64,000 nt of DNA from Myxococcota bacterium (GTDB lineage Bacteria > Myxococcota_A > UBA9160 > SZUA-336), in assembly GCA_965247115.1 (NCBI GenBank), contig CBDFGR010000002.1:896001-960000 (forward strand). Reading direction: 5' to 3'. Numbering within the stretch: the first letter of the stretch is position 1; every line of letters begins with the position of its first letter. Positions 2,765-6,582 of this stretch are shown piece after piece. The notes beneath the pieces were generated by a model. That model worked only from the letters and a program-made list of their open reading frames with translations. It had not been told where the DNA came from and did no database searches. A program made the position numbers and the translations under genes.

Positions 2765-4060
2765 GTGATTCCGAGACTGGCAGCTACTGCGCCATTCTAT
2801 GGATGGCGCATCGTCGCCGCCATATTCGTCATGCTCGCCGTCTCTTCAGGGCTCGGCTTCTACAGCATGGCCGTGTTCCTCGAGGCGCTCACGACCCAGC
2901 AGGACTTCTCTGTAAGTGCCGTGTCGGGCGCGACAGCACTGCTGTTTGTCGTTAGCGGGATCAGCGGGGTCTTCATCGCCGGTCTGATCAGACGCTACGA
3001 CCCCCGACTGCCCATTGCAGTAGGAGCCCTGATCGCCTCGATTGCGCTGGTACTCATCGGTCGGGCTCAGGAACTGTGGCAGATCTACGCAGCTTACACA
3101 CTTTTCGGTGTTGGACAAGCGGCGTCGTCGCTGGTGCCAGGAACGACCCTCCTAACCCGCTGGTTCGTCCGCCGGCGCGCGGTCGCGATCTCGCTGGCCT
3201 CCACCGGACTCTCCGTTGGTGGTGTGGTGCTCACGCCGCTGGCGGCTGCCGGGATCCAAGAATACGGCATGGAGGTAACAACGCTCTGGATGGCCATCGC
3301 CTACCTGGTCGGGATCGTTCCCGTGACGGCCGTGGTCCTGCGCCCGTACCCTGCAACGCTGGGTCTGCTTCCCGACGGCGATCGGGCGTCGGGATTGGAG
3401 GAGTCATTCGAATCCTCCGGGACGAGGCTGCGACACGTGCTGTCGTCCCGCTTCTACGTGGCGATGACCGTCGGCTTCGCCTTCGTAATGGCGGCGCAGG
3501 TCGGTGGGATCGCCCATCAGTTCAAGCTCGTCGCTACGCGGGTCGATGCGACCTTCGCCGCCATCGCTGTGTCCGCGCTCGCGGCAACGAGCATCGTCGG
3601 ACGACTCACGGGCGGCTGGCTCGTGACCGTGATCTCCATGCGTGGCTTCACCGTTGCGATGACCCTGCTGCAGGCTGTAGCCCTCGTGATTCTGGGCCTG
3701 AGCCAAACTCCAGCTGCGCTACTCGCTGGCACGCTCGTCCTCGGCGTCACCATGGGCAACCTGCTGATGCTGCAGCCGCTGCTCCTGGCAGAAGCCTTCG
3801 GCGTTCGGGACTACAGCCGCATCTACGCCATCAGCTACCTCGTCTCGACCGTTGGACTCGCGGCCGGCCCCTGGGTCATGGGCCTGCTTCACGACGCTGC
3901 AGGCGGCTACACCGAGGCCTTCCTGATTGGTGGGCTCGTCTCGATCGTGGCGACGGTGTGCTTGCTGGCAGCGGGACCGCTCGCCGCCGCGCGCGGCGCT
4001 GAGTCAGTGCCAGCGGCTCGGCCGGTCGCGCAGGGCATCGGAGCCGAGCACGATACATAG
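2765..4060 (+). CDS. MFS transporter (OFA/MCT-like)
   Basis: About 12 hydrophobic segments; FYGWRIV start, RWFVRRR, AEAFGVRDYSRI. Confidence 0.88.
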   Translation: MIPRLAATAPFYGWRIVAAIFVMLAVSSGLGFYSMAVFLEALTTQQDFSVSAVSGATALLFVVSGISGVFIAGLIRRYDPRLPIAVGALIASIALVLIGRAQELWQIYAAYTLFGVGQAASSLVPGTTLLTRWFVRRRAVAISLASTGLSVGGVVLTPLAAAGIQEYGMEVTTLWMAIAYLVGIVPVTAVVLRPYPATLGLLPDGDRASGLEESFESSGTRLRHVLSSRFYVAMTVGFAFVMAAQVGGIAHQFKLVATRVDATFAAIAVSALAATSIVGRLTGGWLVTVISMRGFTVAMTLLQAVALVILGLSQTPAALLAGTLVLGVTMGNLLMLQPLLLAEAFGVRDYSRIYAISYLVSTVGLAAGPWVMGLLHDAAGGYTEAFLIGGLVSIVATVCLLAAGPLAAARGAESVPAARPVAQGIGAEHDT

Positions 4061-4888
4061 GGCCTCGAAGCGGTCCCTCGGCACGCCCTGCCACTCGAGA
4101 TCGTCCAGCGACTCCGTGAGTGGGACATCGTCTACGAGCGTCGCGAGGTGCTTGTAGAGGGCGACCTCCTCCCGCATCTCGGCGAGCACACCGGCGAGCC
4201 TGCTCGCGCCGCGTACCTTGACCTCCCACTTCTCCGCGTCGTCCGGAATCGCCTCGACCGAGCCGTAGTGCGAGAGCAGCGCGCTGGCCGTCTTCGCTCC
4301 GAAGCCGGGAAGACCCGGGATCCCGTCTGCATCGTCTCCGACGAGTGCGAGATAGTCGGGCACGCTCTCTGGCGCTACACCGCTGCGCGCGCGCACGCCC
4401 GCCTCGTCGAGCAGCCGCTCACGCACGCGATCCACCTGCACGACCTGCCCCCCCACGACGCACTGACCGAGATCCTTGTCTGGCGTCAGGATGCGAACCT
4501 GTTCGACCTCGTCACGCCAGCGGAGGGCGGCCGTCGCCAGCGCGTCGTCTGCCTCCCAGCGATCCATGGACCAGACGACGATTCCGAGCGCCTCTGCCGC
4601 TTCCTCGACGAGATCGAATTGTGCCCTCAGCGCCGGGTCCACGCCGTCACCCGTCTTGTAGCCTGCAAAGAGCTCATTGCGGAAGGACACGATCGGGTTG
4701 TCGAACGCGATCCCCAGGTGGGTCACGTCTTCTGCGGGATCCTCGAGGAGCCACAGCATGGACAGCGCGAAGCCCAGCGTGGCCTTGACATCCTGGCCGC
4801 CGGGGGAGACGTGCTCGGGCCGCTTCGAGTAGTGAGCGCGAAACAGCTCGTACGTGCCGTCGACCAGGTGCAGACGCGCGCAGCTCAA
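4004..4888 (-). CDS. 5'-3' exonuclease / flap endonuclease (Pol I N-terminal domain-like)
   Basis: HLVDGTYELFR, FAGYK, EADDALAT, DKDLGQ, ALVGD.ADGIPGLPGFGAKTA (H3TH). Confidence 0.93.
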   Translation of the reverse strand: MSCARLHLVDGTYELFRAHYSKRPEHVSPGGQDVKATLGFALSMLWLLEDPAEDVTHLGIAFDNPIVSFRNELFAGYKTGDGVDPALRAQFDLVEEAAEALGIVVWSMDRWEADDALATAALRWRDEVEQVRILTPDKDLGQCVVGGQVVQVDRVRERLLDEAGVRARSGVAPESVPDYLALVGDDADGIPGLPGFGAKTASALLSHYGSVEAIPDDAEKWEVKVRGASRLAGVLAEMREEVALYKHLATLVDDVPLTESLDDLEWQGVPRDRFEALCIVLGSDALRDRPSRWH

Positions 4889-4959: not shown

Positions 4960-5472
4960 CTACTCTCCTCGGAAATCCGCGTCCGGGACGCTCTTGCGCA
5001 TCAGCTCGCGGATGGTCTGGCGCAGCTCCTCTGGTGTCGGGCGGCCGACGAAGTACCAGCCGTTGAAGATGCGGTCGATGGTCAGGTCCGGGAGCAGCGC
5101 AAAGGTAAAGGGAACCGGGAGGGGACCGTGACGCTTGTCTGTCGTCTCCCGTATCCCGAGCTCGTCTGTCAGGTGCAGCCCTTCGTCACTCAGAAAGGTG
5201 TAACGGGCTCCGAGACCAGCCTTGAAGGCGGCCTGGACTCGTGGGGGGTCGACGGATATGACGGCGATGCGGCAATAGGCGACATCCGTGGCTCGGTGGA
5301 GCTGGACCAGCTCCTGCAGTTGGACCTGTCATTTGGGTCACCAGGGGCCGCGATAGAACGCGAGGATGAGCGGCTGGCCGTTGGCGACCTCTTCGATCGA
5401 CACTTCTCGCTCCCGGTCGTCGACCAGGGTCATGGAGGGGAATTTCTGGCCTACTTCGTAGCGGAGTGGCAT
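4960..5472 (-). CDS. AhpC/TSA (redoxin, thioredoxin-fold) protein with two in-frame TGA codons; probable UxxU selenoprotein, 170 aa
   Basis: Manual translation: MPLRYEVGQKFPSMTLVDDREREVSIEEVANGQPLILAFYRGPW(TGA)PK(TGA)QVQLQELVQLHRATDVAYCRIAVISVDPPRVQAAFKAGLGARYTFLSDEG...IFNGWYFVGRPTPEELRQTIRELMRKSVPDADFRGE*. SD AGGAGG lies 7 nt upstream. The TGAs (5340-5338, 5331-5329) sit at the CxxC positions. Confidence 0.85.
5298..5314 (-). promoter_or_regulatory. Candidate bacterial SECIS hairpin
   Basis: mRNA GGAGCUG-GUC-CAGCUCC: 7-bp stem with a G-initiated loop 21 nt after the second UGA and 30 nt after the first. Confidence 0.55.
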
Positions 5473-5621
5473 GGCGCAACCTCCTGCGACGGGAACGGGG
5501 TCATACTAGAACGATCGACGTGCCGGGCATTCGGACATGGTTGGGGTCCTTGGCCCTGAGAGAATGTCTATCTTAGGACTCAAGGTGTGGCCCACGTCAA
5601 GCGGTGCGTGTCCGTGATGCC

Positions 5622-5664: not shown

Positions 5665-6582
5665 CTACGTTTGTCTGGGGTCGTACTGGTCGAGCTGTGG
5701 GGGGATTTCTTTGAGGAAGCGCTGCATGTGGGTTCTGGTTTTTTGGAGGTCGGGGGTGTTTGTGTCGAGGATGAGGTCGGTGGCGCCGGCGTCCTTGTAG
5801 GCGCGGACGGTTTCGGTGATTTCTTTTTGGGTACCGCGGCAGGTGCGGCGGTCTTCTGGGGGGCGGGCGTTGGGGGTGTCGAGGAATTCGAGGACGACGC
5901 GGACGGCGATGGGGAGGTCGTCGGGGCGGTCGGCGTTGCGCAGGGCTTCTCGGAGCTGCTCGGTCTTCGGGGCGAGCTCGGCGGGAGAGAGGCTCAAGGG
6001 GTGCCAGCCGTCGCCAAGGCTGGTGACCCGGCGAAGTGCAGCTCGGCTGTTGCCACCGATCCAGACCGGGGGGTGTGGTTTCTGGGCGGGTTTTGGGGAA
6101 AAGGGCAAGTCGCGGAAGCGATAGCGCTGGCCCTGGAAGTCGGGGGTGCCGCCCGACCAGAGCTCGAGCAGCGCTTGCAGGGTCTCATCGGTGATGGCGC
6201 CGCGGGCCTCGTACGGGACGCCGAGAGCCTGGTACTCGTCGGGGGCTGCGCCGACACCTACTCCCAGCGTGACGCGGCCACGGGAGAGCTGGTCGATAGT
6301 GGCGAGGGTCTTTGCGAGCCTGGCTGGGTGGTGCCAGGGCAGGACGAGGACCGACGTGCCCAGTCGAACGCGGGTCGTGGCGGCGGCGATGATGGAGAGG
6401 ATGGTGAGGGCCTCGTGGTAGGGGCGCTGTCCCAGCCGCTCCGCAACATAGGAGGCGTGAAAGAGGTGCTCGCTCACCCACACGGAGTCGTAGCCCAGCT
6501 GCTCCGCGAGGCGGGCCAGCTCGAGCAGCTCGGCGGGGTCTTCGATGCCCTGGTTGTTCGGTACGCAGAATCCGAAGCGCAT
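5665..6582 (-). CDS. LLM-class (probably F420-dependent) oxidoreductase
   Basis: MRFG...AEQLGYDSVWVSEH, TTRVRLGTSVLVLP, GRVTLGVGVG, PKPAQKPHPPVWIGG. Confidence 0.92.
   Translation of the reverse strand: MRFGFCVPNNQGIEDPAELLELARLAEQLGYDSVWVSEHLFHASYVAERLGQRPYHEALTILSIIAAATTRVRLGTSVLVLPWHHPARLAKTLATIDQLSRGRVTLGVGVGAAPDEYQALGVPYEARGAITDETLQALLELWSGGTPDFQGQRYRFRDLPFSPKPAQKPHPPVWIGGNSRAALRRVTSLGDGWHPLSLSPAELAPKTEQLREALRNADRPDDLPIAVRVVLEFLDTPNARPPEDRRTCRGTQKEITETVRAYKDAGATDLILDTNTPDLQKTRTHMQRFLKEIPPQLDQYDPRQT

Follow-up and report, generated by a model that had tools for sequence, protein, structure and literature searches.

A widely conserved redox-protein gene with two in-frame UGA codons, a predicted double-selenocysteine (U-P-K-U) site and one SECIS-like hairpin in a Myxococcota bacterium

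Sites in which two selenocysteine (Sec) residues stand in a U-x-x-U arrangement are rare, and those of bacteria are, in the literature that we searched, predicted rather than measured. For SelL, a 2007 study is said to have found an intramolecular diselenide bond. In vertebrate SelL a single SECIS serves both Sec residues, according to the accessible part of the source (PMC3316567). Closer to the gene analysed here are the Prx-like thiol:disulfide oxidoreductases of Pfam family PF00578, with UxxC or UxxU sites and one or two Sec, which appear as predicted selenoproteins in the available sections of two papers (PMC13188914, PMC9312934); a marine ‘Prx-like 2’ family with UxxU members has been on record since 2008 (PMC2398784, as excerpted). 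A similar arrangement occurs in the UXXU subunits of group 4 [NiFeSe] hydrogenases, where two UGAs lie three codons apart, one- and two-Sec forms make up a mosaic and, in the portion of the paper at hand, one downstream SECIS is proposed for both UGAs (PMC13582414).

The small redox-protein gene described below looks broken but is intact and widely conserved, and its kind is already catalogued: since UxxC and UxxU proteins of PF00578 and marine UxxU proteins are on record in the accessible parts of the papers just cited, the ‘undescribed’ of the original prediction has to be given up, and what we add is a probable error in the assembled selB gene, a covarying SECIS, a negative search for tRNA-ReC and a suggested Asp/Glu ancestry of the second site. 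Compared by domain and motif description with the catalogued Prx-like group (reference WP_010940744.1), the protein shares a PF00578 score above cut-off, a W-U-P-x-(C/U) motif and a UGA followed by a hairpin; it differs in belonging to a separate branch, distinct from the U-P-[F/Y/H/P]-C paralogues that the same genomes carry, and in this branch UxxU is the majority form, the C-terminal motifs (HGPLPVP and NGWY-GRPT) are its own and the sulfur relatives are C-P-K-[D/E] rather than CxxC. In the literature searched, mostly outside subscription journals, we saw neither this branch nor the CPK[D/E] family described, and nothing relevant came up on CPKE or CxxD/CxxE redoxins; a term search of the accessible text of PMC12013277 gave no passage, and six subfamily motifs were absent from four GOS text supplements of PMC2398784, files whose format (protein or DNA, line breaks) may hide matches. 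Members of the branch may already be held in BSepDB, which is given as having 57,630 entries (PMC13326102, in extract).

The gene lies on the minus strand of a 64,000-nucleotide stretch of contig CBDFGR010000002.1 (‘the window’; Table 1). Working from its start downwards, the frame opens with an ATG at 5472–5470 and closes with a TAG after 170 residues; the only stops between the two are the TGAs at codons 45 and 48, read-through of which gives a U-P-K-U site in the context RGPWUPKU. The position, the AGGAGG and the count of exactly two TGAs were all as originally predicted, with the strand, left unstated there, now assigned; read on the plus strand, the same interval gives a meaningless frame. 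Calling of open reading frames with table 11 leaves the gene out of its list. The Pfam model AhpC-TSA (PF00578) scores 67.3 bits against a cut-off of 26 over residues 7–129, thus spanning both TGAs, and no NCBIfam model reaches its cut-off, the best being BCP (34.8 against 140) and SelL-related (NF040769; 34.1 against 120). The likeness to SelL and its relatives thus consists of a thioredoxin fold, two Sec two residues apart and one SECIS, the last as inferred here; besides the low NF040769 score, the difference lies in the element itself, placed in the 3′-UTR in vertebrate SelL and in-frame, as a bacterial SECIS, here. As the N-terminus lacks a leader, we take the protein to be cytoplasmic.

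Table 1. Features of the two-UGA gene and its surroundings (window coordinates)
Feature	Position	Strand	Basis
Two-UGA AhpC/TSA-domain (thioredoxin-fold) gene, 170 residues	4960..5472	-	Pfam, homologues, model
Shine-Dalgarno-like AGGAGG	5480..5485	-	Sequence; 7 nt ahead of ATG
TGA codon 45, predicted Sec, attacking motif position	5338..5340	-	TGA in 83/83 loci
TGA codon 48, predicted second Sec	5329..5331	-	TGA 67/83, TGC/TGT 16/83
SECIS-like hairpin, codons 53–59, 7-bp stem, loop GUC at 5307–5305	5298..5314	-	Fold, covariation, published model
Upstream neighbour, F420-dependent LLM-class oxidoreductase (TIGR03619)	5665..6582	-	No conserved partner
Downstream neighbour, 5′–3′ exonuclease-like protein	4004..4888	-	No conserved partner

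Both TGAs recur in relatives at 59–94% identity, and the pair is therefore more than chance; among 40 related genomes there are three full-length matches (94, 86 and 67% identity), each with two TGAs. A metagenome scan with C-terminal patterns outside the active site confirmed 251 loci, the best 80 of which we tabulated together with 5 genome loci, that of the source included. Amongst the 83 of these that cover the site, TGA-x-x-TGA is found in 67 (66 UPKU, 1 UGKU), TGA-x-x-TGY in 16 (12 UPKC, 4 UAKC) and Cys at codon 45 in none; the loci are kin, in part near-duplicates, and such counts and their P-values overstate independence. Two of the 83 (L082 and L085) carry an extra TAA at codon 54, within the SECIS stem, representing either a dead allele or a read error. 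Whole-genome searches with the family alignment yield 29 countable loci (10 UPKU, 3 UPKC and 16 CPK[D/E]), a count that overlaps in part with the other genomes and excludes one locus that does not span the site and two that come from unpublished genomes.

The sequence downstream of the TGAs is under purifying selection. By the Nei-Gojobori method, dN/dS against the nearest relative, a congener, is 0.036 before the TGAs and 0.088 after them; after the TGAs it is 0.076–0.191 against ten relatives, with a median of 0.22 over 1955 pairs among 76 sequences. With both TGAs shared and the downstream sequence far from neutral, the original preference for recoding over two nonsense mutations is borne out. 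The distribution is patchy, most genomes searched being without a match: scanning the contigs of genomes with the single protein gave only 3 loci, a phylum-wide search with it (E 1e-30) 3 of 301 genomes, and an alignment search at 1e-25 15 of 225 genomes in the class and 18 of 401 in the phylum of G041. Records from Myxococcota, Acidobacteriota and SAR324 figure among the named carriers or near relatives. Here lies a blind spot of annotation: all 120 of the homologues listed (of 293) in the protein database are fragments devoid of the active site, because their starts fall after the second TGA, in many cases one codon past it.

Below the two UGAs we see a hairpin, a feature absent from the original prediction. 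Its loop is located 30 nt past UGA45 and 21 nt past UGA48; the bacterial SECIS model, in the accessible part of PMC13188914, has the loop 16–37 nt after the UGA, a range into which both distances fall, and the hairpin agrees with the remaining constraints of that model for both UGAs. As a 21-mer it folds at −11.5 kcal/mol (z −3.04 against shuffles, for a segment picked after inspection), the whole 60-nt region being no more stable than its shuffles (z −0.70). Across 75 distinct sequences, 91.2% of 525 cells are paired and 38 are changed on both sides, values for pairing and double change that none of 500 shuffles matches, though relatedness of the sequences alone can beat shuffles; slid controls pair at 24–56%. 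Two synonymous stem positions are C-G in 66 of the 75 and T-A in the other 9, with no mismatch, and the codon of Phe58 is TTC in 64/64 sequences as against 610/769 at other Phe codons. The mean energy of the 21-mer is −9.2 kcal/mol in 13 TGA loci versus −3.5 in 15 Cys loci (a further Cys locus, gapped, was excluded); the Cys relatives retain between 1 and 6 of the 7 stem pairs, their amino acids being similar. UPKC members of the core clade (see below) carry the same hairpin, so the second UGA does not bring an element of its own with it, and from the spacing we infer that the single hairpin serves both. A candidate nearer to UGA45 (codons 49–52) was rejected, having a stem of 3–5 bp only, a loop too near that UGA and little covariation.

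With respect to the active site, the sulfur relatives have a Cys aligned to codon 45, as the original prediction held; its second half, a Cys counterpart for codon 48, does not stand, this position being Asp or Glu (CPKE, CPKD or CPRD) in 90 of the 104 site-covering proteins among the best 150 library representatives, a result that does bear out the proposed link to a CPKE-type redoxin subfamily. The other 14 comprise 12 scattered strings and 2 distant matches with CxxC. Asp/Glu likewise occupies position 48 in all 16 non-TGA whole-genome loci counted, and neither there nor in the metagenome or library was a CxxC member of the subfamily found. Codon 48 does align with Cys in the UxxC members: amongst the 13 TGA whole-genome loci it is replaced by Cys in 3 and by Asp/Glu in none, and a U-x-x-D/E form is absent from these 13 and from the 83 site-covering loci (best 80 of 251 plus 5). 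What appears distinctive, as judged from the alignments, is the single-Cys, CPK[D/E] nature of the sulfur relatives, such that the second Sec would sit at an Asp/Glu position. These C-P-[K/R]-[D/E] redoxins resemble our protein at 30–52% identity over most of the length, in the C-terminal motifs (GW/Y..GRP among them), in an invariant Arg41 and in the scaffold, forming one clade with it against other Prx-like proteins; here, unlike there, Cys45 has given way to Sec and Asp/Glu48 to Sec or Cys, and a covarying SECIS hairpin is present. Queried with one sulfur relative, the ESM Atlas gives clusters that bear the names AhpC/TSA or redoxin domain protein, most commonly from Actinomycetota. One CPRD-type relative (P0128) is apparently fused to a cold-shock domain, which may be an artefact of gene calling.

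A quick, subsampled tree (34 of 79 Sec rows, 22 of 29 CPK[D/E] rows, both motif ends masked), rooted on 25 Prx-like paralogues, recovers the subfamily as one clade (SH-aLRT 94) with the CPK[D/E] forms basal. In the same tree a core clade of 25 UxxU and 5 UxxC rows has a support of 98; within it UxxC rows are nested at two or more points, and four other UxxC rows group with the CPK[D/E] forms. An earlier tree with two long-branch outgroups placed the root inside the UxxU clade; as the root moved with the choice of outgroup, a CPK[D/E]-first order of events is no more than a suggestion. Another Prx-like gene of the source genome (L011; G000:C2:1339235-1339606, minus strand) contains a single in-frame TGA (W-U-P-Y-C) and encodes a hydrophobic leader, and UxxC paralogues akin to it are found in many of the 40 relatives.

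An AlphaFold model, computed from 94 sequences with Cys in place of Sec (pLDDT 94.2), positions the motif at the start of a helix (residues 46–62). Among solved structures the folds of BCP/PrxQ and AhpE come nearest (Z 21.6, rmsd 2.4 Å over 154 residues; TM 0.83), and identity to the solved structures found did not exceed about 20%. On this model the protein would share the peroxiredoxin-type thioredoxin fold with these enzymes (PDB 5epf, 3hjp, 5id2). Against this likeness, Arg41 takes the place of the Pro of their PxxxTxxC motif in the alignment, U45 that of the Thr and U48 that of the peroxidatic Cys, and Pro121 is aligned with the Arg (of 5epf and 2cx3) that we take to be the catalytic one of peroxiredoxins. 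From the form of the motif in the excerpt of PMC13188914, PxxxTxx(C/U), RGPWUPKU departs by an Arg for the Pro and a Sec for the Thr. The catalytic set of the peroxiredoxins is thus, to judge by the aligned residues, absent, and a thioredoxin-type arrangement present in its place.

The gene is real and both of its UGAs are read as Sec: of this we are confident, though short of certain, the conservation of the TGAs, the decoding machinery (below) and the hairpin all pointing to the very probable recoding that had been predicted. As to mechanism, our preferred reading, to which we give a probability of about 0.75, is a U-P-K-U thioredoxin-fold redox protein in which one hairpin is shared in decoding, U45 attacks and U48 resolves. 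SelB, bound to the single hairpin of codons 53–59, would deliver Sec-tRNA to UGA45 first and then serve UGA48, three codons on, before the ribosome melts the hairpin. In the finished protein U45, placed where the active-site helix begins, would be the attacking selenolate, like Cys45 of the single-Cys CPK[D/E] relatives; U48 would resolve the intermediate to an intramolecular Se–Se bond—the role of Cys48 in UxxC members—and that bond would be re-reduced by a dithiol or small thiol of the cell. The protein would then act as a thioredoxin-type thiol:disulfide oxidoreductase built on a peroxiredoxin-like scaffold, rather than as a classical peroxiredoxin.

The resolving, diselenide-forming role of U48 is, taken by itself, a somewhat less secure though still probable part of this scheme; what suggests it is that, wherever U45 is present, the residue exchanged with U48 is Cys, an exchange seen in at least two places within the UxxU clade, as expected of a resolving residue. 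The chemistry of the family would not require a diselenide, since its sulfur majority is without any resolving residue; with sulfur relatives that lack a resolving Cys, the ‘diselenide oxidoreductase’ of the original prediction is better kept as a reading of the sequence. The same relatives give rise to the next-best, if unlikely, alternative, in which both UGAs are again Sec but the U48 selenolate replaces the Asp/Glu carboxylate, tuning or deprotonating U45 or binding substrate in a mono-selenol cycle completed by an outside thiol. Sec is ionised at neutral pH, which suits such a stand-in, as do the prevalence of Asp/Glu at position 48 (90/104 of the best 150 library proteins; 16/16 non-TGA genome loci), the lack of a CxxC member among those found and the basal place of CPK[D/E] under paralogue outgroups. 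The last of these shifted with the outgroup, and U48 swaps with Cys (16/83 loci; 3/13 TGA loci) and never with Asp/Glu, the tabulated loci holding no U-x-x-D/E form; moreover, two selenols three residues apart at the start of a helix would be expected to oxidise to Se–Se.

The machinery for Sec is in place, as the original prediction implied it should be: the source genome (98% complete) carries selA, selB, selC and selD, the last with an in-frame TGA of its own, and ARAGORN finds one tRNA-Sec with a UCA anticodon among its 52 tRNAs. A further alternative, an improbable one, is that a SECIS-dependent tRNA-ReC (SelC*) inserts Cys at one UGA or at both, giving UxxC, CxxU or CxxC. The idea draws on the UXXU hydrogenases, metal-ligand proteins unrelated to ours, where tRNA-ReC is frequent (in about 56% of UxxU-hydrogenase genomes) and UGA may be Cys, as the accessible part of PMC13582414 has it. 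The source genome appears to differ: with one UCA tRNA, one selB and one cysS above cut-off, it yielded no second SelC-like gene to nhmmer, the Rfam tRNA-Sec model or ARAGORN, and no Cys-decoding UGA tRNA to a search by general, rather than tRNA-ReC-specific, tRNA models. Co-occurrence with selA does not discriminate, being found in all 11 genomes with the TGA form but also in 14 of 15 with the CPK[D/E] form; in those 14, each with selA, CPK[D/E] remains Cys-only.

In the assembled source genome, selB has one extra base that shifts its frame (G000:C2:1657173; L045, about 1447–1449), whereas the gene is intact in a congener (G002). The base is missing from four of four public sequencing runs, drawn from four studies, and the frameshift is therefore probably an assembly error; the contig of one run shows just 2 other differences across 1808 bases. 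Contigs drop rare variants, so a minority allele of selB is compatible with the run data, and on the contigs of the four runs we reject loss of selB in the source strain. No RNA run is among those listed as matching this stretch. Of the two copies of an elongation-factor-like GTPase, the one at G000:C1:65500-66666 (L046), probably EF-Tu, has an internal TAA that is possibly another assembly error. A multi-copy element, roughly 1 kb long and probably an insertion sequence, occupies G000:C2:760742-761746 as well as about 30 other places spread over all three contigs; one copy ends about 80 bases before the tRNA-Sec gene.

A shade less probable again is that recoding is efficient at the first UGA alone, with termination prevailing at UGA48, which would then limit yield or act as a selenium-dependent throttle. 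That one hairpin must serve two codons speaks for it, as does the fact that tandem bacterial Sec insertion is no more than a possibility in the excerpt of PMC13582414; against it, the 122 codons past UGA48 are under strong purifying selection, which argues that full-length product is made, and TGA48 is retained over wide divergence in 67 of the 83 loci (best 80 of 251 plus 5). Some throttling at UGA48 would be compatible with our preferred double-Sec reading, and is not exclusive of it. Finally, a pseudogene, a sequencing artefact or a code with TGA as Trp or Gly, for which the frameshifted selB of the assembly might be cited, is refuted to the point of near-negligible odds by conservation, low dN/dS and the absence of the extra selB base from all four runs, and by TGA being an ordinary stop in this genome (ending 848 of 1626 long high-GC3 frames, and standing directly after residue 170 in 31 of 68 homologues) with Trp44 and Trp139 encoded by TGG in 74/74 sequences.

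The surroundings of the gene offer little guidance: when the neighbourhoods of 85 loci were clustered, the largest group held 8 loci, and there was neither a family-wide partner nor a conserved hint of a substrate. In 8 metagenome loci (L101, L107, L111, L116, L117, L120, L122 and L134) the UPKU gene directly follows, on the same strand, a rhodanese–NfuA fusion, a possible link to sulfur or Fe–S handling in that subclade.

What we have, then, is a small (170 aa), soluble and widespread UxxU case with natural one-Sec and no-Sec counterparts, one that makes two questions testable: whether a single bacterial SECIS can direct Sec insertion at two UGAs spaced three codons apart, and what the protein gains from a second Sec rather than a Cys or a carboxylate. 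We also put forward, as a tentative conjecture that we rate as doubtful, that the double Sec is ancestral and stable, the second having arisen at the Asp/Glu of a single-Cys enzyme. If true, U48 would be either a selenolate in place of a carboxylate or a resolving step that the scaffold never had; CPK[D/E], UPKC and UPKU would be a natural three-state series on one fold, with both UGAs of the last served by one 17-nt hairpin.
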